The position numbers and the translations under genes were made by a program. This document shows positions 1,131 to 21,013 of a stretch of DNA of 64,000 bases, in pieces (within the stretch, counting starts at the first letter, position 1; the number at the start of each line of letters is the position of its first letter). The stretch lies in assembly GCA_000182565.2 (NCBI GenBank), contig KQ257450.1, one strand, 5' to 3'. Under the pieces are notes generated by a model that was not told the DNA's origin, searched no databases, and worked only from the letters and a program-made list of their open reading frames with translations. The stretch is from Spizellomyces punctatus DAOM BR117 (lineage: Eukaryota).

Positions 1131-1513
1131 NNNNNNNNNNNNNNNNNNNNNNNNNNNNNNNNNNNNNNNNNNNNNNNNNNNNNNNNNNNNNNNNNNNNNN
1201 NNNNNNNNNNNNNNNNNNNNNNNNNNNNNNNNNNNNNNNNNNNNNNNNNNNNNNNNNNNNNNNNNNNNNNNNNNNNNNNNNNNNNNNNNNNNNNNNNNNN
1301 NNNNNNNNNNNNNNNNNNNNNNNNNNNNNNNNNNNNNNNNNNNNNNNNNNNNNNNNNNNNNNNNNNNNNNNNNNNNNNNNNNNNNNNNNNNNNNNNNNNN
1401 NNNNNNNNNNNNNNNNNNNNNNNNNNNNNNNNNNNNNNNNNNNNNNNNNNNNNNNNNNNNNNNNNNNNNNNNNNNNNNNNNNNNNNNNNNNNNNNNNNNN
1501 NNNNNNNNNNNNN

Positions 1514-4500
1514 ACCCGAGGCTCCCATTGGTAAGTATACCTGTTCCATTAGTTGCAGCGTGGTATGTACCCCAAGAATTACTCGAAGCAGCATTGTTAC
1601 TAATCAGAATGGCCGTAGATGCTGTGGCACTTGAAGGCGCATTGATGACTATGGCAGCCAGCTGCAATCCTCCTCCACCTGCTCCTAGGGTTAGAGTTTT
1701 TCCTATGCCGACTCCACCTGATACCTGGAAAGCACCTGTTGTCACACTAGTTGAATTGGTTGTGTTTGGTATCTGCGTTACGCCTGTATTGGAAACTCTC
1801 AGAACGAAGCCTGTATTGTTATAAGAACTATTTAGACCGAATCCGCCTGCTGATAATGTTCCGTCTCCTGTGCTTCCGGCAACTCTCATGCCCCATGTAA
1901 CATTACTCCCAGTATTTACTAAGGACAATGTTGTAGATGCTGCGCCATTTTGAATGGTTATACCCCTGCCAACAGTGGCACTGTTAAATGATAGCGCAGT
2001 CGATGAGGTAATAAGAGGTTGATATGAGGAAAGTATATTCGATGTAGGAACAACTGAGAACCCTGTGGGTGTTCCCATGATGAAAGTGTTAGCCGCCGGC
2101 GTTAAACCGCTGATAGAATCGAGTAATGCAGACGCACTTTGTTTAGTAGCAAGTGCTGTATCTGCGGCGGCCTTGTTATTCTGAACAAGTGTTTGAAGCA
2201 AAGTCAAGGATTGACTAAGAGGACTTGTCATGCCGGTCATTGTAGCGACACTCCATTGTTGCGTAGCCACTTCGACTCCATTTTGAATGATCAGTCCTTC
2301 AACATTTAGATCATGTTCAACATGTAAGCCACCTGTCAAGAGTCCATTGCCTACATTATCTACTCGAAACACTATATCTGAGGTGCCTTGGACAAATATT
2401 CCACCACTCGTTGTTAGAGAATTAACATTCAATGCAGACGATGTAGTAAGAAGAGGTTGGAATCCCCCTAGAATTGTAGAGACAGGTGATACTGTAAAGC
2501 CCCCAGCAGTTCCCATGACGAAGGAATTCGGTGTCGTTGTTAAACCACTGATTGCATCGAGTAAAGGATTGGCATTTTGCTTCGTAGCAATGGATGTTGT
2601 TAGAGAACTTTCAGTAGCCAATTTCACTCCATTTGTGTATACATCCCCTCCAACGTACAGTGATTTAGCGATGCCAACTCCACCTTTCACCTGGAACGAG
2701 CCGGATGTTGAGGAAGTAGCATCAGTTGTCATATTGATAATAACATTCCCAGATGAGAGAATATCCAAATTCGAAGCCGTTGCATTATTTGTACCAATAC
2801 GCAAATTACTAGCGGAGGCTCGAATGATGTAGTCTCCAGCAACGGTATTTGTTACCCATTGACCTGCTGTTGCTGTATATCCGAATGATGCATTGTTTAT
2901 TTGAAAGGCGGCAGTGGCTGTAGTAGATATAATAGCATACTTTCCCATGTACACTGTGCCTTGCACTCCTAATCCACCGGGAATTTGTAATGCACCTGTT
3001 GTTGTAGAGGATGCATCATTTGTAGCATCCAGTGTAACGATTCCAGTGTTTGCCTGTATTGTTAGTCCTCTAGCGGTCTGTGCTTGAAGCCGAAGGTTAC
3101 CAATATTGTTTCTCAACGTCATTGCGTTAATCCCACCGTCCGAACTCCGGTTGTTTCCATTCAAAAACATCACTCCAGAACCCCCTGAAGCTGTTAGATA
3201 AAGAATGCTGCATCCGTTCGTCCCTGTACTCGGATTGCTTACGATAAGGGAACGTAAACCATTTACAGAAGAGGCTCCGACAGTTAGGTCACCCCCTACA
3301 ACGCACAAACCATTTGTGTCCACTCTTAGACCCAGAGATACTGCACTAGATGTCCGTCCGTAAATGTAAATCAGCTTGTCTTGTGCTCCTAACCACGTAG
3401 CAGCATCACTAGCATACCCTAAAAAACCAGAACCATCCAGACCCAGCCAAGACGATTTTGTACCGTCAAAACTATTTGAAATAAAGACAGACGAGCCTCC
3501 TGCTACAGAGGCGGTCGTTTGAACTCTGCTTCCTGTAATGACTTTCCCTGAGATATTGCTGCCAAATGTAACATTATTTGAAGTTAGATTAGTTATCTGG
3601 CTTCCGACCCAAGGTTTGATAACATCATTGTCGTAATCTCTTAACATTGAGAGATTGATCGCTTGCTGAGGGTATTCGTATTTGATGCCTCGATAACATG
3701 AAGGCATATCAAACAAGAGACGAGTACAACCTCCTATTGGATCAGAAGCAATTGTGACATTGCTCCCGGGTTCAAGTGGTGGCATGAAGGTAACAGGGTC
3801 TATTGGTTCATAAACGGGGTTTCCATCGCCATCGAGTATAGGTTGGCCTTCCGCATCTCGTTGAACCTTACGTTTGCATGACCCTCCGAAAATCATTCCC
3901 CAAGGGAACGTTGAGACGATTGGGAGGATGGAGTTTACAGCCATAGGGACTGTCAAGGTCGGGGAGACCATCGCTGGAAAAGGTACGGTTGATAATGGAG
4001 TTGATCCGGACAAAATAACAGTGTTGCCTGATGGAACATCCATTTTTAACACTTCTGCAGTATCAGTCTGTTCAGTATTATCGGTATCCCTTTGTTTCAA
4101 TAACAGCGTAGGGTCAATGAGTGTAAAGTTGTAGAGAGGGTAACTTCCTGTGATAATCAAGTTTGGACTGTTACTTACGAATTGTGGCGGAATCATGTTA
4201 TACTGAATGGTATTACCAACAACGACCACACTTCCGTATGAATTGGTCGAACCGACATAATTGCCCTTCAGAACATCCCCAACACGAAGAACTGTATCGC
4301 TTCCTGTAAGAGAACATGAAATCAAATCACCGGACACTTGCACTCCATTAATACCTCGGAGATTAGTAGACAAAACAGCACCATTCTTCTGGAGTCCAAT
4401 TCCCGCAGCGATGTTCGAACTGAGAACCCCATTATTGAGGGTTAAATCGGGTGACTGTGCAGTAAGAGATAACCTGAACTCATTGCCAATCCTGCTTACC

Positions 4501-5897
4501 CCTTGGGAGGCTGTAAAGGTATCCCGTATGGTTCCCCTGTTGACCATAGCCAAACCTGAATTAGCATCAACTTTTAGATCGAGTTGAAGGTCATTCTGTA
4601 CTCTCTCGATACCATTGCTGCAAGTAAGTACGTCTTTAATGGTATCTGCTTTGACCATTTGGAGACAACTGCCAGCCTCACATTTGAGAGAGAGCATCAC
4701 ATCATTGGTAGTCCCAGGCCGGATGGTGACTCCGTTAAATTCCTGGAAAATGTACCCACCTGTGAGTGCATTTCCAACAATTCTGATGGTCTGATTATCG
4801 ACCAAACAGCCAATCTCGCGTCGTCCGTTAAACTCGGGTCCCACTGCTATTGCTCCTGTTTGAGAGCCTTGATAAAATTGGGAAAGATAGTCTTTACTCA
4901 CTGCATACGACCCACCTCCAATAGCAGGAAATACTCCTGTTAATTTGACATTTGGTACTCTCAACTCCTGAAGCGTGGACGAATAAGTGAATGAAGAACT
5001 TCCCAAGTAGCCATAGGTAAGGTTCCCATACATGATTTGTTCATATCCGGGTGATTTCAGGGACAATCTCGAACCCGCTTGACTGAATGTGGAACTATCT
5101 ACCATTAGGCGAATGGCTGTGGTGTCTACTTCTCCTAACACATCAGTCATTTCGGTCAAACTATCGAATCCAAAGTTGAGCCATGAAGACCCGATGTCTA
5201 ACAACGTATCCGCACCTGAACTCGATTTCAGAGCGCCAAATGCTTTTAGTACCGACTGAATGTTAGTTTCCAATTCGTCATTATTGTTCACCTTTAGACT
5301 TTTATGAAGTTTGATTCCAAGGCCGCTCTGGTCACGATACAACGGCTTTTTCAGCGTCTCAGGATCAGGAAAATTAACCGATAGACCATTTTCAGTTATA
5401 AGCAAAGTATCATCTGCTTGTAAACCAACCGTACGTGATTCGGCATCCCTGTAGAGTGGAAAATCATAGTTATAAGGAATGACTGTTAATTTTTCATCCT
5501 CAACTTTTAGTTCATCATCATCAATGTTTAGGCTTACTGTTCGTGAGTCGGGAGCCCTATAGAGAGGTTGCAGGAGTGTCTCTGGTTTAACAGATAAGCC
5601 GTCTTCTGTTATAAGCAGAGTATCGTCTGTTACAAGCCTGACATCATGTTCATCATCAATTAATGGAAAAACATAAGTTGTCTCGGCAAGAGAGATGGTA
5701 TATTTACCTTTATTTTTCTGAATGGAGAGACTAGGCGTTTGACTATCCAAATCGAGTATAGTGACTATACCATCTTTATTCCGTAGGCTCTCTCCATAGA
5801 TAGAATTGGCTTTAACTTTTCCGGACTTGAAATTATCTAGGACTTCTAAATTTCTTCAAACCATATATGTGCCTTGAATGCTATTAGGCAAAGGCAT
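1514..5897 (-). CDS. Large virion fibre/spike-like protein, paralog 1 (>1460 aa; one in-frame TGA at 5856-5858; C-terminus in gap)
   Basis: ATG at 5897 (MPLPNSIQGTYMV*RNLEVLD...) is in frame with ORF 1119..5750. It has N-terminal PLYRD-type shaft-like repeats and three G/S/T-rich STTTGALQIPGGLGV-type repeats typical of viral fibres. Confidence 0.75.
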
Positions 5898-5955
5898 CTT
5901 CTTATTCCTTTATATCATCATAGCTTAGAAAATGAATTGCATGCCGACATTTGGT

Positions 5956-6654
5956 CTATACAATGTCATCAAAGATCGATGGTGGTTTGGTACGCATGAT
6001 ATCCCTGCCGGGATGCGTTACAGGCTCCGCGCGACAGGTATCTATTGCATACCGGGTTGTTCGAGTGTGGTGAACGGGGCGATTTCTCTTTTTTTTGATG
6101 ACTTTGACAACTTCCTCATAATCATCTGAAGAATCATCTTCTTCTTTGTCTGACGATTCCTCAACTACAATCTTCCGTCTTTTTTTCGGTATCAGCGTTT
6201 TAATTCTTTTTTTAGTCTTGTGACTATATGAAGTATTTTGTAAGTCCTCCTCAGCGCGGAGCCTAGCCTCGACACGTTTTTCCTGTTCCACCCTAAGAGC
6301 CTCGGCCTTAGCAAGAATCCTCTCCTCCTCTTTTCTCTTCTTTTCTAGTTCTCTCTCTTCTTTTCTCTTGGCAGCGAGTTCTCGTCTAACCTGAAGAGCC
6401 TTTTCTCGGGATTTTTCTAAATGTGCTCGCTGCTTCTCTGATGCAGTTCATTTTTTGGGAGCGCTGGCATTGACCTCTCTGGGATTGGCCGCTCCGTGCC
6501 CGGCATATTTGTTTACAAGTTCTTGAACATAGTCTTGATGATCATTGTCATTAGTTTCATCATCATCATTCAAACTTTGTTCTTCATCTGTAATGTCAGG
6601 CATGCCTGCCGGCATTTGGCTCTGCGCCAGCATAGATTCCTTTTTTTTAGGCAT
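5956..6654 (-). CDS. Charged coiled-coil viral protein (track ORFs 6448..6687 and 5956..6291 joined through an in-frame TGA at 6448-6450)
   Basis: Reads MPKKKES...APKK*TASEKQRAHLEKSREKALQVRRE...EQEKRVEARL in one frame. The KKRxxSEKQxxxLxKxRE pattern is one I recall from small proteins of PLVs and large DNA viruses. Confidence 0.7.
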
Positions 6655-6693
6655 TTTAGCTTGTAAATAGAAAATAAAAAAACCCAAATACGC

Positions 6694-7671
6694 TTAGCGA
6701 GGTTCTTTTGTCCATGATGATGGTATCTTATAAGAATTACTTGCCCACTCTTTCTTAAGTTCCTTGTGTACCTTACCATTTTTTCTAATCCAATTACCGG
6801 TTCTTGGATTGTAAACTTCCTGCAAGGATGAATCTCTCGGGTTTCTTCTCTCATGAAGCCTTGGCGATGGCTGCATTGTTGTGAAGTCAAATGTAGATGG
6901 AGACGGAGATGGTGAGTCATCCATCGGCGCTAGTGATGGTAAGCCTGAGGTTGGTGAATCAGATCACCTATGTAGAACCCATTGTGTAGGCGGCGTGCCT
7001 CCTTCCTCATAAAAGATGTTCTCAGACAACGCAGGAGTAGGTCGTATCACACCACGTTGCATGTTGTATTCATCTCTTGAGGCAGAAATATCAGTACCCC
7101 TAGTGCCCAAGCCAGTTGTTTCTAGCAAACTCTCCCCAGGATTGTGAATACCATGTGAAGAGCGGAAACGCTGTATGTCAGCCAATTCCTTACATTTTTC
7201 CTCTTTTATAAACTCTTCATAACCTTCGCGCATTCGTCGGATGCATGCAATCAAATCTATGTCATTTTTGTATCCTTCACTACCGTGGTTTATCGGATAC
7301 CTAGTTTCTTGATTAGCACTCGGAGCATTCATCCGGGTACGACCCTCCTGCATCTGTTTGAGTTCTGCATCAGACACAACGGGACAAAATGTATCAGGAT
7401 TCAAAGAGCGTCCATTTTCATCTCTCAGTTCACCAAAACGTCTATTATCAATTTCAATATAGTATGGGTCACTGACGAATTGTGTATCAACCTTACCAAA
7501 TGAACGATACTTGTTTAACAGCGGGTGCTTGAAATAGCCTGTAGGTAACTTTGAGTCAACCCATTTTCTTTTTTCTTTCCAGAACACATCATGTTCAACC
7601 TGCTCAGAGTTGTAAGCAGTTACATCAGTGTTACCTTGCTGTAATAGTTTTACTAATTCAGCAACAGACAT
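6694..7671 (-). CDS. Hypothetical viral protein with C-terminal NPxTGxxI motif (track ORFs 6964..7671 and 6694..6924 joined through an in-frame TGA at 6964-6966)
   Basis: Continuous frame ...WVLHR*SDSPTSGLPSLAPMDDSPS...; the C-terminal YNPRTGNWIRKNGKVHKEL resembles the 2-cysteine-adaptor-like motif of large DNA viruses. Confidence 0.65.
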
Positions 7672-7720
7672 ACCGTTCTATTCTGTATTTTACTATATAG
7701 TATTATTAAAAAAAAGAAGA

Positions 7721-7981
7721 ATGTCGTCTCAGCAAAGGAAGGAACGGATACAAGAGCATTTGAGGAAGAAGTTGGCTGAAAGGAATGAAGGGCAAGAAAT
7801 GGAAACAGTTCTTTCTCGAATTATAAGAGAACTGGAGGAACCTCGCATGCCTGAGCCGGCATTGGCATACAGTAAGGAAACCATCATCCCAGATGCTGAT
7901 GCGGGGGGTATTAACTGGAACGAATATGTTATTATTCATGAAAATCCTCTTTACAGTGATGACTTGAATGAAATCATTTGA
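7721..7981 (+). CDS. Small hypothetical viral protein (86 aa)
   Basis: ATG at 7721 follows an A-rich leader. The gene is divergent from the 7671 ORF and ends at a hairpin. Confidence 0.55.
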   Translation: MSSQQRKERIQEHLRKKLAERNEGQEMETVLSRIIRELEEPRMPEPALAYSKETIIPDADAGGINWNEYVIIHENPLYSDDLNEII

Positions 7982-7982
7982 C

Positions 7983-8003
7983 GCTACTTTTTCTAAAAGT
8001 AGC
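7983..8003. terminator. Palindromic hairpin between convergent genes
   Basis: GCTACTTTT-TCT-AAAAGTAGC is a perfect 9-bp stem filling the gap between stop codons at 7981 and 8005. Confidence 0.55.
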
Positions 8004-8004
8004 A

Positions 8005-8322
8005 TTAATACCCCGCTAATTCAACAGGAAGCGATTTCCTTAAGGCTGAATCAAAATTTTGTTGAATCTCATAGCCCCGCCCTAGACCTTTATGGAGATC
8101 ATCGATATAGCCTCGTCCTCGTGAAATTGTCTCTCTTACTTTGACGGGTACAGATTCGTCATGGACAAGAGATTGATGAACTTTCCCATAGATATCTTTG
8201 GCTTGTCCAGCATGGGCAACAAATTGTCTAATACCGTTGTTAACTTTGTTATAACTGTTCAGCACTCTAAGACCAAAGTTTTTTGCACTTGAGAGAAAGT
8301 TTGCGAATTTTTGACGCAACAT
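8005..8322 (-). CDS. Small amphipathic helical virion protein candidate
   Basis: 105 aa, directly downstream of the penton gene on the same strand, with an amphipathic N-terminus (FANFLSSAKNFGLRVLNSY). Confidence 0.6.
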   Translation of the reverse strand: MLRQKFANFLSSAKNFGLRVLNSYNKVNNGIRQFVAHAGQAKDIYGKVHQSLVHDESVPVKVRETISRGRGYIDDLHKGLGRGYEIQQNFDSALRKSLPVELAGY

Positions 8323-8357
8323 CTTTTACATGTTCCAAATGAAAAAAAAAAAAAAAA

Positions 8358-9101
8358 TTAATCATCTGCAAAGCCAGAGGAATGACAATCGAGAACTAAA
8401 GTGAACCCTTTGCCCTGTAGATCCAAGGGTAGCAATGTTTCAGCATCAAGCAAATGGATGTCGATCGTACTAACAAGGCCAGACTCCGTGTCAATGAAGT
8501 CGGTGTCAAAATAATTCTGCGCACATAGGACAGTTTCAATTTCTTGCGACACCGGAATAGAGGCAATGATATTTAAATCATCTGTGCCTGCATAAATGAC
8601 ATCATTTGACCTTATGTTAGATGAGGCTACGAGCACCATCTTAACGCCTGTCAGATCGATGGGATTTGAGAAGGTAATTGATGTCCCAGGGTCAGATTGC
8701 TGAGTTTGCTGCAATCCGAGCAGTTTGCTTGCTGTGGTTTGAGGGTAGAGAACTTTGAATGGTGTTGTACCCGCGGTCACTGTGATTTGACTGTTTATAT
8801 GATTGTATTCTACAGTGTATGCTTGCGTCCCAGTCGAGTTGAATCCAGCAGTCAGTGCATCGACCAAATCATCAGGGCTATATGTCCCAGGAGGAATAGC
8901 AAAAGTCCTTGCAGCATTACCCATCCCAGCATCATAAAAGGAGACAATATTGTTCTTTTCGTTTACTATGTCCCACGAAAGGGGCAAAATGATCGAATTG
9001 TATCGAATTTTATCACATGCGATGGGTTCGGCTAGAGTCCATTTAGGTTCATTCCTGTTTCCGTTCGTCGCCCTGTTGCTATCGAGAATCAACTTTTTCA
9101 T
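8358..9101 (-). CDS. Minor capsid protein (penton, single jelly-roll)
   Basis: PLV penton pattern: LILDS at the N-terminus, PLSWDIVNEKNN, IPPGTYSPDDLVDAL, NPIDL, IIASIPV and C-terminal IDIHLLD...PLDLQG.FTLVL. Confidence 0.85.
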   Translation of the reverse strand: MKKLILDSNRATNGNRNEPKWTLAEPIACDKIRYNSIILPLSWDIVNEKNNIVSFYDAGMGNAARTFAIPPGTYSPDDLVDALTAGFNSTGTQAYTVEYNHINSQITVTAGTTPFKVLYPQTTASKLLGLQQTQQSDPGTSITFSNPIDLTGVKMVLVASSNIRSNDVIYAGTDDLNIIASIPVSQEIETVLCAQNYFDTDFIDTESGLVSTIDIHLLDAETLLPLDLQGKGFTLVLDCHSSGFADD

Positions 9102-9149
9102 TTCTTCTAATGTATTATAGATACAGAGAGCAAATAAAAAACAAGCGCA

Positions 9150-9821
9150 ATGAAGGCTATTACAATATCACCCTTACCAAGTCAAGTCTCTGGACGCATA
9201 AAGGATAATACAGATCCACGGCTTCCTAGAAAGTATGGTTTTATTGTATACAATGGTGCTCGATTTTGTGGGAAGACGCTAAACATTGCAGTGATATGCA
9301 AATTGTTCTTGAAGAAGCAGTATTCGAATATCATAATTTTCACACCAAATCCACACGATACCAATTGGAACCCTTTAAGAACGAGCAAAAAGGTTCATAT
9401 ATTTGACAAGATTTCCAATGAAATACTCAATTTTATACACGAAGAGCAACTTTATGAATTTGTTCGAAGCGGAAGAAAATGAGATTTACTTCTTATCATA
9501 GATGACTACAATATGCAGAAAGGACATAAGAAGTCACTCGATGAGTTGGCTACACGGGGTAGACACGCTGGAATCACCTGCATCCTGTCGAGTCAATATT
9601 TTTATCACAATAGTCCCGCTGTCCGTAGCAATGCGACGAACTGGATCATTTTTAGACCTTTGAAAAGCGAACTTAAGAAAATGGTCGAAGCAGGCTTATC
9701 TCTCGCTTTACCTGAAGATGTATTTGAAAAGTTCGTTATGGATAATACAAAGAAACTGTTTCATTTTGTGCACATAAATCTACAAAGTTCGAAAAGACCG
9801 TTTAGAGTTGGTTTTTCGTAG
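9150..9821 (+). CDS. A32-like (FtsK-HerA) genome packaging ATPase, interrupted by an in-frame TGA at 9480-9482
   Basis: Walker A GARFCGKT; Walker B LLIIDD just after the TGA in the same frame; A32 signatures TRGRHAGITCILSSQ and SPAVRSNA. Confidence 0.92.
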
Positions 9822-9840
9822 GGGGACAGGCTGTCCCCCT
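9820..9840. terminator. Perfect hairpin at the ATPase stop codon
   Basis: AGGGGGACAG-G-CTGTCCCCCT is a 10-bp inverted repeat overlapping the TAG. Confidence 0.5.
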
Positions 9841-10001
9841 TTGACCCCCTCGCTTTGACAACCATTGTAACTTGTTAAGCTACACCGACTGAGTTCAGGC
9901 TATTTAGGACAGCAAACTCCTTTCCGAAAGGCACAATTTTTGATGTCACTTTTTCTTAAAAAGTGACGTTTTTTTTTTCTAGATGTGTAAGTTAAACCAC
10001 A

Positions 10002-11387
10002 ATGTCTTCAGGAATTCAGGTAACTGAGGTTCGACAAGTCCCAAACGTCTTTACGTATAAGCGCAATGCCAAGAACGGGGTTGTGCTGAATTTTCAGCCA
10101 TCTAGTCAGGTTCGCTTCGAGCCTACCAACGGATTGGGTGACTGTAACTTTGGCAGCAAAATCACTTTTAAAATAGCCGATGACAAGCGTTTTTGGCTTG
10201 TGAATGAAACCTTACATAAATATCGTGTCGTAGGGCTTGATGCAAATAGACAGGAAATCGTTTCTGCCACTGCAACCCACAGGCTATGTCAATCAGGAAC
10301 GGATGCTGTATGGAAACGCCAAAGTGTTCTTATTAATGGAAGGATCATCGAAGATCTCAATGATTATAATTTGTTCACCGCACATGAAAACGCTCTAACA
10401 TTGTGGGAAACCAAACAACATCTTGGGCAATGTGAATATTATTCGAGTGATGCGGCTAACGACCATTCAGCAGTGGTTGCTAAAAACAGGGCATACACTG
10501 TCACTGGCTCATCACTGTCATTCTTTCAAAATGAAGTGGCTTTCCCTCTCTGTCTTGTCAAAGGTGGTGTCCAGGTCGAGATGACTGCAGAGAGTGAACT
10601 TGCCAAAATTTTCCCCACATCCACAGGAATAGATTCATTCAAGATTGTCCAGAACGAACTCATTTGCCAGTTCGCCGAGCCCATACCCGAATACTACAAC
10701 AAGATCCTTAGCCTAATGGAGAGCAACGAATACTTGACCATCCCCATGCAAGTTGTGTGGAGTCAGGAGTTTGCTGGGCAAGCCAGTCGCGTACAGCAAT
10801 TGTCACTTGTGACTGGTGAGCAGTCCTCTGTTTCATCATTGATGTTGGTGACAACTGACAATGTTCGAACTGATGTAGACAAATTGAATTTCAGTGAAGA
10901 TGCTGGGATTAGAACAGTTAGTATCCAGGTGGGTATGCAGCGGTTCCCTGAGGGAAAAGCGATTGCCAACGGTTCCGCTTGTGCTGGTACTAATATTATA
11001 CCTACTGTAGATCCTGAAATGTATGCATTAAGCCAACGTAATAAAGATTTCAATGATGTGCGATTTGCCCCCACTATGTCCGATTTGGAAGGATGGGCAC
11101 TAGCAGGCAAAAAGATACAGCATTGGTCATGGAGGCAAAATTTCAAGCAAAGTCCAGATATGATCGGCGGTGGTTTGAATACTCTAGCCGATGGGCATAT
11201 TCTCATCAATGTGAGTCAATATCCCAACCCTCCGGAAGTAGCCGATTTCCCAAGCGAAAAACTAGAGGGTGATACGCCTAACCCCGATTATATCCCTACG
11301 TTCAAGGACAAGACATTCCATGTCTTCTGGACAACAGACCATGAGATGCACATCGACCGTGATGGTGTTCGCTTGTTACCAGCATAG
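10002..11387 (+). CDS. Major capsid protein (double jelly-roll, PLV type)
   Basis: 461 aa, beta-rich. VRFEPTNG...KITFKI and SGTDAVWKRQSVLINGRIIEDLNDYN match the PLV MCP N-terminal pattern, and the gene sits beside the ATPase and penton. Confidence 0.82.
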   Translation: MSSGIQVTEVRQVPNVFTYKRNAKNGVVLNFQPSSQVRFEPTNGLGDCNFGSKITFKIADDKRFWLVNETLHKYRVVGLDANRQEIVSATATHRLCQSGTDAVWKRQSVLINGRIIEDLNDYNLFTAHENALTLWETKQHLGQCEYYSSDAANDHSAVVAKNRAYTVTGSSLSFFQNEVAFPLCLVKGGVQVEMTAESELAKIFPTSTGIDSFKIVQNELICQFAEPIPEYYNKILSLMESNEYLTIPMQVVWSQEFAGQASRVQQLSLVTGEQSSVSSLMLVTTDNVRTDVDKLNFSEDAGIRTVSIQVGMQRFPEGKAIANGSACAGTNIIPTVDPEMYALSQRNKDFNDVRFAPTMSDLEGWALAGKKIQHWSWRQNFKQSPDMIGGGLNTLADGHILINVSQYPNPPEVADFPSEKLEGDTPNPDYIPTFKDKTFHVFWTTDHEMHIDRDGVRLLPA

Positions 11388-11449
11388 TTCAACAACAGGA
11401 ACCACGATGATTTTTTCTAAGCTTTGGTTAGGTAAGCCTCAAGAAGAAT

Positions 11450-11620
11450 ATGACAAAAACACATCGAAAACTCGTCAACGTATCGGCCATGCCGAATAAA
11501 GGACTTAGAGTGGCTGCTCGTGCAAGAAACAGGCGCATCATCGCTGCTAGAAAAGCCGCAGCAACACGTAAGCGACGCTACGGTTCTGGAAGAGTCATGA
11601 GGCGTGTTGTTTATGTTTAA
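11450..11620 (+). CDS. 56-aa Arg/Lys/Ala-rich core (DNA-condensing) protein candidate
   Basis: Manual translation MTKTHRKLVNVSAMPNKGLRVAARARNRRIIAARKAAATRKRRYGSGRVMRRVVYV*. No acidic residues; directly after the MCP; below the ORF-track cutoff. Confidence 0.7.
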   Translation: MTKTHRKLVNVSAMPNKGLRVAARARNRRIIAARKAAATRKRRYGSGRVMRRVVYV

Positions 11621-11785
11621 AAAACGGCGCCAAGAAATGCCAAGACTATGCCGGGCGCGGGGCGGCCAATCCCTGCAGGGATGCCAAGATTCTTTCCATT
11701 GAACGGAAGGGCGTCCCTGAGTACAAGCCGGTGGCATAAAAAGGCACTCGGTGTATCTTTTCTCCCATTAGCACGAGTATGGGTT

Positions 11786-11929
11786 TGAAACATCAGGTAT
11801 GATTCGAAACATTTAACCGAATCTGAAACATCAGATACGTGTTCTGAAACACGTGCCATAAATCTGAAACATCTAACCGAATCTGAAACATAGCTACATT
11901 TTCTGAAACACCTAACCGAATTAGAAACA
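11786..11929 (+). repeat. Array of 8 phased GAAACA motifs (period 19-21 bp)
   Basis: GAAACA starts at 11787, 11806, 11825, 11846, 11866, 11885, 11905 and 11924, several within a TAACCGAATCTGAAACA context. Confidence 0.85.
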
Positions 11930-12684
11930 TGTCCATTGCAAAGAGTCAATGGGGGCAAGTGACACACTTTGTAGGAGGCTTGCTACATCCCATAGCGTGT
12001 CGTGCTCTCAAGATGGGTCTAGAGGATCTCACCTTCGAGCAAAGCGAGTGTTTATTAGAAAATATGGCTGATAATCAGAAGATATATAAGGATGACAAGG
12101 AGTTGCTAGAATCACTTAAAGGTCATCTGAGACGACTCCTAAAGTGGAAGAAGCGAGAAGAGACTCAACGGAAATCTTCATCTCTCAAGTTAAAGAGGAA
12201 GTTTGAAGAGTTCGAAGAGTCCGATGGTGAAACCTTGAGTTCTGGTTCTTCATCTGATGCTGACGATTCCGATGATGCCGATGACAGCGATTACAGTCCA
12301 CAAAAGGCTAAACGCAGACGTGTCGAGAAAGAGAGTATGCCAGGCGCGGAGCGGTCAAGCCCGGTGCAGACCCATATCCCGGCGCAGAGCCATATCCCGG
12401 CGCAGAGCCATATGCCAGAAGGCATGCCGGAAGGCATGCCGGCAGGCATCCCGGCAGGCATCCCGGCAGGCTTTCCTGAGCCTGAGCGTGATGGGGAATC
12501 CGCTAATTTAGAGCAAATGCTCATGGAGCGTATCGAGCAGCAGCAGATGCAGATTAACGCACTCATAGCAGCTAGCATCCCTAAGCGCAGAAAGAGCGTC
12601 AAGGCTAAAGTGAGCGATCAGGACATTGTCCATGCTGATGTTATCAATCCTCCAGATGTAGGAAGCAGTAGCGCCGCTGCTTGA
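11929..12684 (+). CDS. Hypothetical viral protein with acidic tract, NLS-like basic motifs and (M/I)P(A/E)G repeats
   Basis: 251-aa ORF with 18-bp and 12-bp GC-rich tandem repeats at ~12372-12470. Confidence 0.65.
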   Translation: MSIAKSQWGQVTHFVGGLLHPIACRALKMGLEDLTFEQSECLLENMADNQKIYKDDKELLESLKGHLRRLLKWKKREETQRKSSSLKLKRKFEEFEESDGETLSSGSSSDADDSDDADDSDYSPQKAKRRRVEKESMPGAERSSPVQTHIPAQSHIPAQSHMPEGMPEGMPAGIPAGIPAGFPEPERDGESANLEQMLMERIEQQQMQINALIAASIPKRRKSVKAKVSDQDIVHADVINPPDVGSSSAAA

Positions 12685-12968
12685 TTCTCTTCAATTACCG
12701 TTGACACTCGCTAAAAAATCCATGAAATCAACAAAAAAAGTATGTCGTCCATTCGAAGAACGGACATGGAAACAACAAAACCAGAAAAAAAAAATACAAA
12801 ACGACAAAAACAGTCTGTAAAGGTGTTTTGTAGCACAATGTACATAGATATCCCTTTGTTTAGTATCATGTAGGGGCGTTGTTATAGAGCTTTTGTACAA
12901 CGTTTGCTAATAAACACACACGTTTAAACAAAGATAAATAATATTTTGTATACACAATATATTTTAAC

Positions 12969-13283
12969 ATGGGACGCAAATCAGGATCGATAAACACGAA
13001 GGATCGCTACAGGGTATACAAGATCGAAGAAGATGGTTCTAGAACATTTGTAAATGACTATCAGGCAGCCATAGAGATTGCTAACAGGTTAGGTGTCTCG
13101 CGCTCATACATTCATAATATAATACATGGGTTAGCAGAATCGCCTATTTCAAAGATGTATGCTATAGAAAAGTTACCATGTATACGAAAACCACCACCAC
13201 CTCCTCCTAAGATGAGATACTTTAAAATAAATCGAAAAGTGGCTATTCCTGATGATCCAGTAAAAGTTGCTCACTTCGCATGA
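12969..13283 (+). CDS. Small HTH (NUMOD1-like) DNA-binding protein
   Basis: FVNDYQAAIEIANRLGVSRSYIHNII fits a helix-turn-helix; basic N-terminus MGRKSGS. Confidence 0.6.
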   Translation: MGRKSGSINTKDRYRVYKIEEDGSRTFVNDYQAAIEIANRLGVSRSYIHNIIHGLAESPISKMYAIEKLPCIRKPPPPPPKMRYFKINRKVAIPDDPVKVAHFA

Positions 13284-13357
13284 ACATCATTCGAAGAACA
13301 AACACATTTAAAGCTTTGAAAATATTTATTTTTTAACACTATATATTTCTATTTACT

Positions 13358-16300
13358 ATGCCTTTGATTTTTGACCCAATCGCAAACAGAAACGTAAAAG
13401 AAGACTCGAAGCCTTTCGAGAAGATGATGCGGAAGATCGTCTCTGGAAACTTCTCATGTAAGAACTGGACTAAGAAACGACGAGAAGCACTAGAGAACCT
13501 TCAAATACATCGAGTACCAAGATTCCTACAATCTGAGCGAGAAAAAAGAATTGCTGCTGCGAGACGCACTGAGGCTCAAAAGCAGGCTATTGCTGAAAAG
13601 GCCAGAGAGACAAGAAGGCTTAATAAAGAAGCGGAAGAGCGCGAGATGAGAGAAATTCAAGAGAGGGCTCAGGCTGCTATTAAAAAGCGAAAGGAAGCCG
13701 CTAAGAAGGCTGCTGCCACTAGGGCTAAACGTAAGTATAATCTTCGAAAGCGTCAAGAATCATTCTCACCTTTAATATCTGTCAAAGAGATCAAAATCAA
13801 AGGTATCGGTTATACAAAGGAACTTTATCGGTTCAATCCAAAGTACACCTTCGCTACTCATGATGATATTGTTTCATTTTTCAATGATGTCATCAAGGAA
13901 TCACTTGTAGGCCTTGAATGCGGTGACAAAGTGCAAATAGGGTTTCAACATCAAAGTCTACACAATGGATTTTGGTCATCAAAAGTTGTATCAGTTAGTG
14001 ATCTGATTGCTTCTGATGTGATAGACGAAATTACTGCGAGAATGCAATCGGCTGAAATAGCATCAATCGATGAAAGCATGACTATCGAGGTGCGTCGTTT
14101 AGTTTCGGTAAAGGGCGGCGCCTTCAAAAACTATCATGACCATCTATCAGCACAGTCAAAAAGTTGTGTCATTGTTGTGAAAAACAATGGTAACGATTGT
14201 GGTATGAGAGCAGTTGCCTTATCCGTAGCATTCCATACGATGGATCACTCAACAAATGAATATGCGTACATCATGAAACAAAGAAAGCCACTGGACAAAA
14301 TTGTTACTAACTATTATGAAGGATGCGGGTTACCTGTTGGTCAGAAGATGTCTTACGGCGATTTTCCAAAGTTGGTTTCATTCCTCAAAAGGAACATCAT
14401 TATTGTTGATCTAGAGAATGGTGGTAAGCCTCTTATGGTCAAAGGTGTTAACAATGAGCGATACAATGAGAAACCTGCTACTATCCTATGTAAAGGGGAT
14501 CATTTCGATTGCATAACCAAGATTAACGCCTTTTACTGTGCATCGTATTTTTGTTTCCAATGCATGAAAGGACACAAGCATACCAATCATAAATGTGATA
14601 AGAAACGAGGATGCAACCTTTGTGGTCGGGTCACATGTAAACAAGGATCTCCCGATGATCTAGTGTTGTGTTTAAGTTGTAACTTAGGTCACTTTTCAGG
14701 AGATTGTGATGATTATCACAAGGAGAAAAAATGCGATAAAATATGGAAATGTAACAAGGAAGGCGGCTGCGGGCGTGTATTTGAGTGTGCTTATTATGAC
14801 GGTAATTGTGCTGAGTTACACAATTGCAACCACCATCTCTGCCGTCCTTGCAAGGCTTACGTCACTCCTGACCATCGATGCTTCATACAGAAAAAGAAAC
14901 CCAGAAAGCACATTAGCAAGATCATAGCATTTGATTTTGAATCAGAGTTTCTACATGATGGTGAACATCATGTAAAGTTTACGGATTGCAAGGTAGTTTG
15001 TACCGGTCTATGCCAATCTGTGTGCCAATGTCATGAGCATCACTCCTTCTTTGAATTTGATGCTTTTTATCAATTCATCTTCAAGAACCCTAATACAACA
15101 TTCATTGCTCACAATGGTCAGGGTTACGATTTCCACTTTCTCTTCAAAAAGTTCAATGACAACGGTGTTAAGCCTAAGTATATCTCAAATGGGTTGAAGA
15201 TCATTTCAATGGTGCTGCCCAAGTTCAACATCCGGTTCATTGATAGCATGTCGTTTTTGCCTATGGGACTGTCAAAGTTGCCTTCCATGTTTGGATTAGA
15301 GGAACATGTTCGTAAGGGTTACTTTCCACATTGGTTCAAATGTTCAAATGATTATAAAGGCGTTTTACCGTCTTTGGATGATTTCCGATTCGACAGTATG
15401 CCCTATGATAAACGCGCTGATGCACGACGCTGGTACAAGAAAACCCTACGCGAATGCATGAAGGGTAGGTATGTTTTTGATTACACTAAGGAACTTGTTG
15501 AATACTGCAAGAATGATGTCGATATTCTAGCAGCGGCCGTGAAATTGTTCCGAGAGCAATTCCTTGTAGCAACCGATGGTGAAATTGATCCTTGGGCTTA
15601 TAAAACCATAGCATCGGCATGTATGGGGACTTACAGGCATATGTTCATGCCTGAAGAAAGCATACCCACACATCATGAAGAAGGAATGTGGCGTCATTCA
15701 GACAAGGCTGTCCAGTGGCTCGAATATCTATGCGATAATGGCGTTCCAGATATGCGACATGTTCTACATGGTGGAGAGAAATGGATTGACTGATTAAATG
15801 GGAAAAAATTCTATGCTGATGGCTATTCTCCTTCGACAAATACTGTGTATGAATTTAATGGTTGTGAATTCCATGGGTGTAAACAATGCAAAGACGATGA
15901 TGCCGTTAATTATCGTGGTGTCCCTTATAAGTCTTTGAGACAATATACTGATAATAAGCATGAAAAATTGATTGCTCTAGGTTACAATTATGTCTCGATC
16001 TCAGAGTGTGAATATGACTCAAACAAGAAGATATGTGATTATGTTATGAGTAAAGACCTCGACATTGAATATATCCGACCTCTAGATCCTCGTAACGCAT
16101 TTTTTGGTGGTAGAACAAATGCCAGCAAACTTTACTACAAATGTTCTGAGAAGGAAAGAGTGAAATACTGCGATTTTACATCACTGTATCCTTGGGTAAA
16201 CGCTTTTGGAGAGTACCCCTGCTACTCGTTCCCCACAAGGATTCTTAACAACTTTGATGGCCAACTGAACTACAATGGTTTCATCAAGTGTCGAATAGTA

Positions 16301-17500
16301 CCCCCTCGTGGGTTATATCACCCTGTACTTCCTGCTAAGATTAACAACAAGACCATGTTTGTTCTTTGTAATAATTGTGCTGAAAAAGGAATCTCTGTTT
16401 GTCGCCACTCTGTTGAACAGAGGGCTTTTGTTGGGACTTGGTGCATTCCGGAAGTGAAGTTAGCGCTTTCAAAGGGCTATGTCATTTCTCAAGTTTATGA
16501 GGTTCTTCATTTCGAAAATACGGGATCTGATCTTTTCAAAGATTACATCTTCACATTTCTCAAAATCAAGCAGGAAGCATCAGGGTACCCTAAATGGTGT
16601 AAAAATGATGACGACAGAAAAAAGTATATTGACGACTACGAAAGCAAGCAAGGTATTCATCTTGATCCAGCCAAAATTGTCTACAATGAAGGATTACGTC
16701 TCGTGGCTAAGTTGATGCTCAATTCATTGTGGGGTAAATTCGGTCAAAAGAACAACATGCGTAAGCATATCACAATCAATGCTGAGGAAAATCCTGATGA
16801 ATACTACTCCATCATGTTCAATGATAAATATATTGTACACGACATTGTTGATTATGATAATGGTCGCACTTTGGATCTGTCATACTCCTTGCATAAGGCT
16901 GCTGTTCGTGATGACAAGAATACTAGTATTTTCATTGCTGCATACACTACCGCTTTGGCTCGTTGTAAACTTTACAGTGTTCTGGATACTGTAGGGGAAA
17001 AGGTGTTGTACTATGATACTGATTCTATTATATATGTTGATGATGATATAGGATCAACTGAAAAGACTTTGCCCTATGGTGATTATCTTGGAGACCTGAC
17101 AGATGAATTGAAAGGCGACCATATTGTAGAATTTGTTTCAGGTGGCGCTAAGAATTACTCTTACATTCTCAACAAAACGGGGAGAGCAAAGACGGTCTGT
17201 AAAGGCTTCGCACTTTCATATGAAAATGGACTCAATCTTGGACATGAGTCTATGAAGGATATAGTATTTAACCCTAGGTACATTGATGATGAAGGGATTG
17301 AGAAAGAGAGTTGTGTTAATTTTAACTTTAGCGAAATCAACATTAGTAAAACACACAGTGTGCGTAACAAGACAAAGATCATCATACCAGAAAAAAATAA
17401 CTCACCCAGCAAAAAGTACAAGTTTGTCTACGACAAACGTGTGGTTCAAGAATTTAACTCTGAGTCTAAGGTCATAGAGACACTTCCTTTCGGTTTTTAA
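13358..17500 (+). CDS. polB: Protein-primed family B DNA polymerase (single ~1380-codon gene with an in-frame TGA at 15791-15793)
   Basis: ExoI AFDFES, ExoII AHNGQGYD, ExoIII YCKNDV; polymerase motifs FFGGRT, DFTSLYP, KLMLNSLWGKFGQ, YYDTDS, KNYSY. The two track ORFs are in the same frame, separated only by one TGA. Confidence 0.95.
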
Positions 17501-17501
17501 A

Positions 17502-18602
17502 ATGGGGACAAAAACCGAACTAATCACGAAAGTTTACTATGATCCCAAGACTGGACTTCAGAGCATAGAAAAGCTCTACCAGAGACTCAAGGATCAGGGT
17601 ATTTCCAGAAAGGATATAAAGACATTCATCGACAGTCAGCATGTGCAACAAGTACACAAACCTCTTGTCAAGCCTAACTACATGCATATAACAGCCAATG
17701 GTGTTGATCACATATGGCAATCGGATTTGTGTGACATGCAGAAATATGCTACCTACAACAACGGTTACCGTTATCTGTTATGTATTGTAGACGTGTACTC
17801 TTGTTATGCCTTTGTTTTTCCTCTCAAGAATAAAACCAGAGAAAAGATTGCTGATTGTTTTACAAAGTTACTCGCTAGGCGGCGTCCTAAAAATATCACG
17901 ACTGATAGGGGTTCAGAGTACAACAACATTGTTTTTGAGCAATTGCTCAATAAGTATGGTATAAACCATTACATGGCTGAAGTTGCTGACCATAACCATA
18001 TGGGTCTGGTCGAAAGGTTTAATCGCACACTGAAAAGTGTTATCTCCAGATACATGACCGTATTTAAAACTAAGCGCTACATAGATGCTCTTCCTGACCT
18101 TGTTATGAACTACAATACTTCATATCACAGTCTATTGAAAAAGGCACCTGTCGATGTTGCTGATGGTGATTATATACGCGATAATAGCAAGGCTGTAAGT
18201 GATTTCAAGAAGTTTGACATTGGTGACCATGTAAGAATATTACTCAAACGGGATATTTTCAAAAAAGGATATGAGGCAAAATGGTCTGATGAAGTATACC
18301 ATATAGTCAATGTCGATGGCTATCGATTCGTAGTAGCATATGCCAATGGTAAAGAAATAGACCAGCATTTCAAATACTATGAATTACAGAAAACCAATGC
18401 ACCGATTACCGAGAAACCAGGTCATCGACCAGTAAAATTGACTAGAACACAAAAAGAAGTTCGCAAAGAAATTCGTCAGTTGGAGCCTGTACAAACACGA
18501 CCTACTAAAACAAGATTGCAACAGAAAAAGTTAAAAGTTCGTCCGAAGGGTACATTTTCACACATAGAAATTCCGCGGCGGAAGATGCCGGTGCAGATGT
18601 AG
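17502..18602 (+). CDS. int: Retroviral-like (rve, DDE) integrase of Polinton type
   Basis: YYDP N-terminus; catalytic WQSDLCDM / TDRGSE / VERFNRTLK; SH3-like FDIGDHVRI..FKKGY...WS; starts 1 nt after the polB stop. Confidence 0.95.
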   Translation: MGTKTELITKVYYDPKTGLQSIEKLYQRLKDQGISRKDIKTFIDSQHVQQVHKPLVKPNYMHITANGVDHIWQSDLCDMQKYATYNNGYRYLLCIVDVYSCYAFVFPLKNKTREKIADCFTKLLARRRPKNITTDRGSEYNNIVFEQLLNKYGINHYMAEVADHNHMGLVERFNRTLKSVISRYMTVFKTKRYIDALPDLVMNYNTSYHSLLKKAPVDVADGDYIRDNSKAVSDFKKFDIGDHVRILLKRDIFKKGYEAKWSDEVYHIVNVDGYRFVVAYANGKEIDQHFKYYELQKTNAPITEKPGHRPVKLTRTQKEVRKEIRQLEPVQTRPTKTRLQQKKLKVRPKGTFSHIEIPRRKMPVQM

Positions 18603-18962
18603 TCCATTTGAAGAATGGACATGAGGACCCCGGCAGGCATGCCGGGCGCGGAGCGGCCAATCCCGGCTGGTATGCCTCGAAGGTAATGTTGAGATGGGAT
18701 GAGTTCTGATGCCTGAGTTGCCTACATCTTCTGTGGAATTTTGTGTAAACAAGGAAACCAATGTTGCCATTTAAACATGTGGATATTTCTATTCTTTTTG
18801 CAATCTTGCTAGGAAAATGGGGACATTTCTCATCCCTACATGTCTCTACATAATTTTTTACTTTCCATAAGCTTCCAATTTTTACCATTGGTTTTATCCT
18901 GTGGCACTTTTTCCCTGGGAATATTTTTGATGAAATTGTCCCACAGTGCCTCACTTTGTAGT

Positions 18963-19779
18963 CAACTTACCTGCTTGTCGAGCAGCAGAGAATGTCATCG
19001 TTATCGACCCAAACAAGCGCGACATTCTCTACTGCCAAGACAGCAATGGTACGACATTTCGCTACACCGCCAACCAGCGAGCCGTGGAGACTGGAAGCCA
19101 GTGATTTGCAAAGAGACGAGAAGCAATGAAGGAAGAAGCTGGAGTTGATCTCATAGAATCACGAATACCATCCCACAAAACAATGAACCTCATGGACTTC
19201 ACTCGCTACCTTCTCGTTCGCCGCGCTGATTGGGATCGTCGCAAGGAATTCTATTCGCATCCTGCTCATACTCGATGGAAATGGCACTCCTTCATAAACC
19301 GTCAGAAGAGCGAATCAGACCTCATAAGTAACATGCGCAACAAGTACGGTGAAAACTTTACTGTTGTGATGGGTGATTGGAGCGATGCTGGTCGAACTGC
19401 AAAATTTCAGACCTCATCAAAGACAAAAGGCTGGCGCACCCTCTTTAAGCGGAACAGGATAAACTGCTTCCTTCTCGATGAGTACAAGACCTCATCTGTT
19501 TGCCCTCGCTGTTCATCCTCTGAGTTTGTCGAGAAAGGCTTCAAAGAACGACCTCATTCAAGACCTTGGCAGCGAGGCAAGGTTGAAAAAGTCCATGGAT
19601 TGCTGGGTTGTACCAACCCTAACTGTTTGCAGCAAGACTGGACGTTGAGAATGCGCTACTGGAACCGAGATACGCTGGCAACCTGTAATATGCTAACGAT
19701 CGTGCAATCAATGTTGGATGGACACGGTAGACCAGAGGTGTTCAGCAGGAGCAGCAGGAGTGTTCCAGCGGTAGCGTAG
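18963..19779 (+). pseudogene. Fz1: Fanzor1 (eukaryotic TnpB-family RNA-guided nuclease), 3' part only, with an in-frame TGA at 19102-19104
   Basis: The frame of ORF 19126 extends upstream as NLPACRAAENVIVIDPNKRDILYCQDSNG (RuvC-I Asp at 19006). Also present: VMGDWS, LDEYKTSSVCPRC (RuvC-II Glu + Zn finger), CTNPNC and WNRD (RuvC-III). Closely resembles SpuFz1 as I recall it. Confidence 0.93.
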
Positions 19780-19797
19780 CGTAGATTAGTTAGATTA

Positions 19798-19887
19798 GCT
19801 TTTCCGAACTGGTTGTCGCCGGTTCAATCCATGGTGCGGGTGCTAGTGCCAATACCCACCGGCTCCGCACTATCGACACCAGCAAGA
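19798..19887 (+). ncRNA. Fanzor1 omegaRNA (~75-nt scaffold ending ...CCGGCTCCGCACTA at 19872, plus predicted ~15-nt guide TCGACACCAGCAAGA)
   Basis: Lies just downstream of the Fanzor stop. TTTCCGAACTGGTTGTCGCCGGTTCAATCCATGGTGCGGGTGCTAGTGCCAATACCCACCGGCTCCGCACTA resembles the SpuFz1 scaffold/right end as recalled. Ends are approximate. Confidence 0.82.
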
Positions 19888-21013
19888 TCGCATCCGCAAG
19901 GTTCACATAGTATAAAACTTTGGGCAACGCTTCCGCAACCGAGCGGATGCGCTACAGATGATTGAAATGAAGCATATATTATATATCCAAGTCGGAGGCC
20001 TAGTGGCAGGAGAGGAGATCCCCTACTGAATGAGCTAGGCTCTGCCGCGACGGCACAGTGGCGGTTTATGGATACTTTACGAGGTGCAGCTGTCGCGCAG
20101 CGACGGGAAGGAACCTTCCGATATGCGTTTGAACTTGGAGCGAAACCTTCCTGGTAAGGTACTCTCAAATTTTCCATTTGTTCATAAGCTTCTAATCGAT
20201 GGCTCAAATGAAATCGAGAGCTTGACTTACTAGCCTCGCCGTGTAAATCTTAATAGGGATTGTAGCTCTCATGGCACCTTCATGTTGTGAAGGTTAAGAG
20301 TCTGGCCCGAATGATGGGCTGGGAGGGCAGGTTTGGCTATACTGGTCACAGCCAAGCCTTCCCAGTACGGCCCACCATTGTTGCGACGAACATTGAGCGG
20401 AACGTACCCGTTTCTAAGATGTAAATGCCAAATATGCAAGATCATCCAACCAAACCTCTGAATCTACACATCCATATTCCCTGACGGAAATAAATGCTGT
20501 TGTCCTTGCTGCCTCCAATGACGGTAGATTATGGTCTTAGATCGCACCCCGTAGACCAATTATAAGTAGTGAAAATTGCCCAGAGAAGATTATGGTATCT
20601 CGTATGGCAGGTGTACGATTGCAAATCCTGTAATAAAGTTCCAGATCAGGATCCAAAAACGAGCCTAACCTTCTGTTGAAGACAGTCAAATTCACTACAC
20701 ATAACTAGACTGCTATGCAAGCCATCTTGAGTTTGTCATTGCTATCTTTTTCCCTTTTCTCTGCACCGAGCATGGTGAAATAATATTCGATGGGTGATTT
20801 TCTATTTTAAGGTGCAGAGGACCCATTCACGCCCTCTTTTCCAGAATCTAATCCTGTCCACACTTGCTTCTGACAATGCCTTCCAGAACCCTCAAACGCG
20901 CCTGTTGGTATAAGAAACCATCATGGCTGACAGAGGGAAACCTCGTTAGACTGCAGCCATTCTGATACCGCAACCAAGAGTGCCCGAGTTCATCTAACAA
21001 ATTATCATTCAAC

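Follow-up and report, generated by a model that had tools for sequence, protein, structure and literature searches.

Integrated Polinton-like viruses (PLVs) are on record in the soil chytrid Spizellomyces punctatus (Bellas & Sommaruga, 2021, PMC7805220), and a 2026 preprint puts chytrid PLV ATPases in two places of a tree (10.64898/2026.06.19.733378). For Amoebidium, endogenous adintoviruses and giant viruses silenced by cytosine methylation have been described, among them Polinton-related viruses with protein-primed family B DNA polymerase (pPolB) and capsid genes, which are multicopy, silent and in some cases degenerating, as they are in the present case (Sarre et al., 2024, PMC11244446). 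Here, we report on a 64,000-nucleotide stretch of S. punctatus DAOM BR117 (assembly GCA_000182565.2, contig KQ257450.1), which we call the window and in which a PLV is integrated into a gene of the Fanzor family. Virus and Fanzor gene together carry six in-frame TGA codons in the window. With a probability of roughly 0.84, we conclude that these TGAs arose by CpG deamination in silenced methylated DNA, as part of the decay that followed insertion.

When compared with the described systems, the locus shows both likeness and difference. Methylation was measured in Amoebidium, whereas our evidence is a mutational scar and comes from a chytrid; the terms 'deamination' and 'stop codon' are absent from the searched text of the Amoebidium paper. 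For the PLV group of Bellas and Sommaruga (PMC7805220), the supplement matches the host protein SPPG_00925 to two rows of major capsid proteins (MCPs), but this protein was absent among the 12 homologues of the MCP of our virus. Judged from these supplement rows, our virus may be a second lineage beside that group. The interrupted gene belongs to the same family as Spu-1 Fanzor1, for which 11 loci with embedded genes, including Gypsy/Ty3, are described (Saito et al., 2023, PMC10432273). Viral insertion or methylation is absent from the accessible text of that study, whereas here a virus interrupts one copy, in which three TGAs are found. Repeat-induced point mutation (RIP) as well as RIP-like TpCpG hypermutation likewise inactivate repeats by an excess of C-to-T change (Horns et al., 2012, PMC3318451). 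In our case any CpG may be changed and ACG is hit most frequently, which resembles the passive CpG excess that the accessible part of the same paper describes for other basidiomycetes. The same CG-to-TG spectrum, with ACG highest and few indels, is given in the accessible text on MBD4-deficient human leukaemia (10.1101/180588). In the largely open-access literature, we found no account of the CpG spectrum of Spizellomyces repeats or of a PLV within a Fanzor gene, but the supplementary data of PMC10432273 or PMC7805220 (Table S4) may list this locus. We consider the mechanism a known one and the locus a new and unusually clean example of it.

The provirus in a Fanzor gene and its six TGA codons

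The right terminal inverted repeat (TIR) of the provirus occupies positions 18575 to 18962 of the window and its partner lies at about G000:C1:815512-815917. The TIRs are flanked by the left and right halves of a Fanzor gene, and the 6-bp target-site duplication CAACTT (18963-18968, plus strand) has its second copy at the left end. The 3′ half of the Spu-1 Fanzor1 element follows on the plus strand (18963-19874), its open reading frame (ORF) ending at 19779, and the 5′ half, with two further TGAs, is located 35.5 kb upstream (L026), outside the window. The ORF at 18963-19779 matched S. punctatus Fanzor1 (PDB 8gkh) with 578 bits and an E-value of 2.7e-173, and homology of the element reaches 19874. 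For the Fanzor census we used 29 other loci, among 30 taken of 42 matches listed, and in all 29 the alignment starts at 18963-18964, exactly where the right TIR stops. Since Fanzor homology starts at the TIR end, the 5′ half lies past the left TIR and CAACTT is found on both sides, the virus is integrated into a Fanzor gene. As assembled, the provirus is 35,536 bp long, compared with 21,381 bp for the sibling copy C8; the extra length comes from a gypsy and a copia element in the left arm.

A sequence-only reading had listed in-frame TGAs at six positions of the window, and all six are present. They start at 5856, 6448, 6964, 9480, 15791 and 19102, with 17, 81, 237, 114, 818 and 56 open codons upstream and 1578, 163, 89, 112, 568 and 224 open codons downstream, respectively, and the genes bearing them terminate in ordinary TAA or TAG codons. 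TGA is the only stop codon that a CpG transition can create, and for these genes a model of uniform single-base substitution gives a probability of 2.6e-4 that all six stops are TGA. Among ten viral ORFs scanned, five carry one TGA each and five carry none. A single TGA per gene, as had been assumed, is correct for the five viral genes, but not for the Fanzor gene: the 35.5-kb insertion divides it, and its 5′ half holds two additional TGAs. The absence of frameshifts was borne out for the viral ORFs of the window: there are 15 indels relative to the copies C8 and C15, and the coding ones are in frame, form a compensating +1/-1 pair, or leave the window frame open. When the TGA was read as X, the polymerase matched DNA_pol_B_2 (PF03175, E 2.9e-45) and the ATPase matched Pox_A32 (PF04665, 24.8 bits vs. 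a cut-off of 22.8), and both matches cross the break.

The viral sites were compared with three sibling copies (C8, C15, C5). Here, we found that none of the five viral TGAs is common to any sibling copy and that at four of the five sites at least one sibling carries a sense codon with a CpG. At site 6448, the nearest sibling has the opposite-strand product of the same CpG. At site 6964, the opposite-strand product is all that is seen, in both covering siblings, and we infer the CpG there. The Fanzor site 19102 has an Arg codon with CpG in 20 of the 29 other loci and TGA in 1 of 29. Taken together, alignment to other genomic copies, which had been suggested as a check on CGA-to-TGA change, yielded CpG-bearing codons at five of the six sites. 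The TGAs are not conserved, as recoding would imply, but are private to this copy except for one other Fanzor locus. The C8 copy has TGAs of its own, located elsewhere.

Of two missense changes that had been cited as companions of the stops, one failed. C8 alone among the siblings covers the integrase codon TGT at 17802 and has the same codon, which is thus not shown to be a change after insertion. The other, the motif QTICI of 'fibre-2' vs. QTIRI of 'fibre-1', probably compares two different viruses; of 10 aligned paralogous stretches, which overlap in part, 6 have a CpG at the fibre-2 motif.

Substitution spectrum and neutrality

The closest pair of copies is formed by the window and the right arm of C8, and 93 of their 150 substitutions are of the CpG type, which corresponds to 38 times the rate of other transitions. 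C/T differences were counted at 87 of 420 CpG, 8 of 881 CpA, 7 of 502 CpC and 11 of 763 CpT sites. With growing distance of the copies the CpG ratio drops to 18, 13, 8-11 and 5, as would be expected if viral divergence adds to a similar CpG load. For the polymerase core a ratio of 136 was obtained (confidence interval [CI] 43-693), and over 994 sites of a gypsy stretch all 27 differences from its sibling were CpG changes.

The terminal repeats of an element are identical at insertion, so that differences between them record later change. In seven terminal-repeat pairs with target duplications, we counted 50 changes in 436 CpG bases, compared with 6 transitions and 7 transversions in 3105 other sites, and CpG transitions were 59 times as frequent as other transitions (95% CI 25-169). 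Six pairs without target duplication gave a ratio of 7 and all 13 pairs together a ratio of 27. An earlier pooling of 12 pairs (C6 excluded; ratio 29) was discarded since some of its pairs lacked a target duplication. Among eight full-length gypsy elements (L065-L068, L071-L074), four have none and look recombined or mis-joined.

The frequency of change depended on the base 5′ of the CpG (A 0.22, G 0.14, T 0.105, C 0.08; p 2e-8). Changes were found on both strands and the strand runs tests were not significant. Neither was there clustering, with 11 adjacent losses vs. 11.9 expected. A comparison of CpG observed/expected with host DNA, as had been proposed, gave a value of 0.78 for positions 1-18962, but the gap to 0.87 for 20000-64000 is mild, which makes this measure a weak discriminator.

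In the closest pair, CpG changes were nearly neutral, with rates of 0.20 at synonymous, 0.14 at nonsynonymous and 0.17 at stop-creating positions (p 0.19), whereas the older non-CpG divergence shows purifying selection (pN/pS 0.16-0.23). The window lost 6.6-8.3% of its CpG bases. From the measured rate, four estimates predict 3.5-5.0 TGA and 0.8-2.6 other stops; 5 and 0 were observed.

In the Fanzor census, 20 of the 22 premature stops in the 29 other loci are TGA. All 8 loci interrupted in the 5′ half (7 of them by a gypsy long terminal repeat [LTR]) carry a TGA, compared with 2 of 21 free loci (p 1e-5). Nonsynonymous CpG loss had a median of 15% in the interrupted Fanzors, this locus included, and of 1.7% in the free ones, and there was no excess of private non-CpG changes in the interrupted copies. 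Decay of the interrupted Fanzors fits a spread of methylation from the insertions. Synonymous CpG loss did not differ significantly between the two groups (p 0.25, about 13 sites per copy), so that youth of the free copies or selection on them is an alternative to such spread. RNA maps to the Fanzor 3′ end (19208-19871), but at 19831 none of the 20 reads has the window letter; this RNA therefore stems from other copies.

Host enzymes, silencing and competing explanations

The host genome contains a DNMT5 orthologue (808 bits to 7R76, DNMT5 of C. neoformans). The idea that DNMT5 is the only methyltransferase of the host was refuted by a DNMT1-like exon at L088:66-374 (G000:C1:741.6 kb; E 5.5e-4, best match DNMT1), which was missed by the Pfam scan and had first appeared as a weak match. 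A search for a longer protein with this exon found nothing, and a search with PF12047 gave no match but left the controls blank too. The other weak methyltransferase match is presumably DNMT2-like by its motif, as is L085. RNA depth did not exceed 0.19 in any of 21 viral bins, compared with 221 at a host gene end, and the RNA-seq check of the virus region thus indicates a provirus that is silent in the one run used. 5-Methylcytosine (5mC) in Spizellomyces is confined to transposons according to a 2025 paper (PMC12695648). In chromatin immunoprecipitation (ChIP) run X17, depth over the virus (4600-18543) is about tenfold that of host DNA at 19872-21199, a difference that a heterochromatin mark would produce but that is confounded by copy number.

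These data suggest the following sequence of events. The PLV integrated into the Fanzor gene, and gypsy and copia landed in its left arm, in an order that their nesting suggests. The host would then have marked the region with 5mC at CpG and silenced it, as the host enzymes, the published 5mC statement and the absent RNA lead us to assume. Methylated cytosines would have deaminated singly on either strand, outpacing repair, a chemistry to which the observed spectrum points. With other mutations being rare, nonsense changes would all be TGA and would arrive before any frameshift. The features of 5mC decay that were found comprise CpG-concentrated transitions, which lie scattered on both strands and are blind to coding in the closest pair, and a host gene for a CpG methyltransferase.

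Several observations weigh against this explanation. The CpG share varies among the seven terminal-repeat pairs (permutation p 0.0005), with 16:0 and 13:1 in two pairs vs. 0:2 and 10:7 in others, and a plain clock can account for this variation only on the assumption of copying errors in young pairs and saturation in old ones. The lowest sequence context is CCG here and not TCG as in the human data on MBD4-deficient leukaemia (10.1101/180588), and one of four strand tests was borderline (21/30, p 0.04). Site 6964 shows a CpG in neither of its two covering siblings. The 10,349 viral codons of the siblings contain 8 stops, of which 3 are not TGA, and one of the 5 sibling TGAs stands at a codon without CpG in the window. 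Nonsynonymous CpG differences were rarer than synonymous ones in three more diverged comparisons (p 0.04 to 0.0005), so that part of the signal there predates insertion. A TDG/Mug-like repair ORF is present, below the curated cut-off, which leaves the high CpG ratio unexplained; with this ORF the earlier notion that the host has no T:G repair was abandoned, and the genome holds four HhH-GPD matches, among which MBD4 might be found. The RNA evidence comes from one run, of which about 6% was read and which is apparently 3′-biased, and methylation of these particular CpGs is deduced from a species-level statement, the host enzymes and the absent RNA.

An alternative reading is that the TGAs are read through, recoded or edited and that the genes still function. 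The stop codons are indeed identical at all six sites and the frames continue, but the siblings are free of the five viral TGAs and the sixth recurs in just 1 of 29 Fanzor loci. Recoding is rejected because the TGAs are private to this copy. Moreover, C8 has its own TGAs elsewhere, the count of stops matches neutral decay, virtually no RNA covers the virus and the same genes end in TAA or TAG. Neither a stop conserved among copies nor an expressed gene, which recoding should leave, was found, and we give this idea practically no credence. The preference for CpG deamination over recoding, expressed already in the sequence-only reading, agrees with the sibling, spectrum, neutrality, stop-count, enzyme and RNA tests. 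Sequencing or assembly errors are only a little more credible and still highly improbable. The read check covered two of the six TGA sites. At 5858 the window letter was carried by 10 of 27 reads in run X17, 2 of 4 in X18 and 3 exact reads in X16, and at 9480 by 8 of 66, 1 of 5 and 1, respectively. It can be seen that the window letter is in the minority of reads, and the region contains a gap besides a probable mis-join, which might speak for an error. However, three DNA runs carry this letter at both sites, errors are not expected to prefer CpG and ACG, and the majority letter is explained by the siblings.

An active defence deserves more attention. A DNMT1-family enzyme might drive CpG-to-TpG change in repeats episodically and far above the passive rate, in the manner of RIP. 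The ratio of 136 in the polymerase core, the 27:0 and 16:0 outcomes of the gypsy comparisons, the heterogeneity among repeat pairs (p 0.0005) and the TGAs in all 8 interrupted Fanzors vs. 2 of 21 free ones (p 1e-5), unaccompanied by extra private non-CpG changes, would all be consistent with it, and the DNMT1-superfamily exon, although its best matches are DNMT1, might belong to a RID or DIM-2 enzyme. In ascomycetes RIP targets CpA, is triggered by duplication before meiosis, and its changes come in clustered, strand-biased rounds. RIP-like hypermutation in Pucciniomycotina prefers TpCpG (PMC3318451). Our data show neither context: CpA is changed at 8 of 881 sites (0.9%), TpCpG lies below ApCpG (0.105 vs. 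0.222), and with the runs and adjacency tests not significant, strand runs and clustering are both absent. Many repeats are barely touched (free Fanzor median 1.7%, two LTR pairs without any CpG loss), and Horns et al. (2012), in the accessible part of their text, take a plain fungal CpG excess as passive deamination. We consider such a RIP-like defence unlikely. A slightly larger, still small chance is left for an accelerated CpG mutator in general, working enzymatically or by withheld T:G repair in heterochromatin at 60 to more than 100 times the rate of other sites. It is just as doubtful that such a mutator would permanently disable integrated viruses and retrotransposons and spare transcribed free Fanzors until they are interrupted. 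If true, an antiviral defence resembling RIP, but aimed at plain CpG, would exist outside Dikarya.

If decay by CpG deamination is the correct explanation, chytrid methylation goes beyond silencing integrated DNA viruses and ends their coding capacity in a short evolutionary time, before frameshifts occur. Given how large the CpG excess is, the rate at which 5mC deaminates in the host, and the repair of this damage, become directly testable in a transformable fungus, and the contrast between decayed interrupted and preserved free Fanzors bears on the question of why many Spu-1 copies stay intact. For annotators, TGA-only breaks at this locus would indicate decay and not a genetic code, in a region that is probably mis-joined.

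Provirus anatomy, virus class and assembly

The provirus carries a pPolB, an rve integrase, an A32 ATPase and TIRs with a 6-bp target duplication, all of them features of PLVs, in which target duplications measure 5-7 bp. Its TIRs measure about 390 bp, and the target duplication reads CAACTT on C1 and CTCCTG on C8. On the minus strand, a long ORF at 1514-5897, the putative 'fibre' of the sequence-only reading, has its TGA (5856-5858) near the start, runs into an assembly gap and found no Pfam match. It is followed by a 232-codon viral ORF (5956-6654; TGA 6448-6450) and a 325-codon viral ORF (6694-7671) with a weak 2C_adapt match near its end and a TGA (6964-6966) whose CpG origin is suggested indirectly. 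The open minus-strand ORF at 8358-9101 is by its position a probable minor capsid protein; it matches viral hypothetical clusters only, its Atlas neighbours being viral hypothetical proteins. The plus strand encodes the A32-like packaging ATPase (9150-9821; Pox_A32 match, TGA 9480-9482), an open ORF for a probable double jelly-roll (DJR) MCP (10002-11387), two open viral ORFs to which no function was assigned (11929-12684 and 12969-13283), the protein-primed-type family B DNA polymerase (13358-17500; DNA_pol_B_2 match, TGA 15791-15793) and an open retroviral-type (rve) integrase (17502-18602; PF00665, E 8.4e-17). The Fanzor TGA lies at 19102-19104.

The structure model of the MCP candidate has a low confidence (pLDDT 44). 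Its top six structural matches are DJR capsid or scaffold proteins, although with Z-scores of only 6.1-8.1 and root-mean-square deviations of 4-8, and among its Atlas neighbours at 0.97, DJR and Capsid_N each form a minority. The 12 homologues come from four chytrid genera (Spizellomyces, Gaertneriomyces, Powellomyces and Geranomyces), and searches of viral and metagenome contigs yielded no relatives of the capsid gene. Classical Maverick/Polinton elements carry an adenovirus-like cysteine protease; no Pfam match to one was obtained among the scanned ORFs, with the left arm incompletely assembled. In the C15 virus copy, a different rve integrase directly follows the capsid gene (L001:257-1399), which suggests module exchange among these viruses.

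The gypsy (chromodomain) and copia (also with a chromodomain match) elements are nested in the left arm from L026:1950 to L062:2945 (G000:C1:816.2-829.9 kb), and their frames hold two TGAs and one TGA, respectively. At the window edge, 'fibre-2' (1-1130, minus strand) precedes an assembly gap of 383 N (1131-1513), a likely mis-join point. Fibre-2 overlaps by 71 nt (98.6% identity) with the C5 fibre at the point where the latter breaks off at an N gap, and shares 71% identity with fibre-1; it probably continues the fibre gene of the C5 copy, having been brought in by a contig swap, and is then foreign to this provirus. A near-identical copia also flanks the C5 virus copy, the flanks of the copia copies on C1 and C5 are swapped, and the missing 3′ end of gypsy follows the C5 copia. 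The simplest reading of these regions (window 1-1513, L062:2945-5201, L019:1501-3302) is probably a contig swap between C1 and C5 at the copia copies, as opposed to a real double exchange, and part of the left arm of this virus is probably missing from the assembly.

In run X17, the window letter often makes up less than a quarter of the reads between 13000 and 18000 (6/34 at 13612), with other variants near half, a pattern that hints at uneven ChIP enrichment or at more polymerase-bearing copies that the assembly lacks. We also observed an open 721-codon C5 cytosine methyltransferase ORF (L083:208-3379; G000:C3:655-658 kb) at a distance of about 9 kb from a fibre homologue. It lies beside an ORF that looks recombinase-like by eye and has no Pfam match, possibly a second kind of virus with its own methyltransferase. 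An Rfam scan of the window gave no match. A motif rich in GC, about 26-38 nt long, is present repeatedly and in either orientation at 6481-6507, 11647-11685, 12337-12488 and in the terminal repeat (18629-18676), and a 29-nt unit is present three times at 11803-11930 within the virus. Close to the provirus, at 35037-36494, lies a host gene with a PAZ domain, possibly a gene of a small-RNA pathway.

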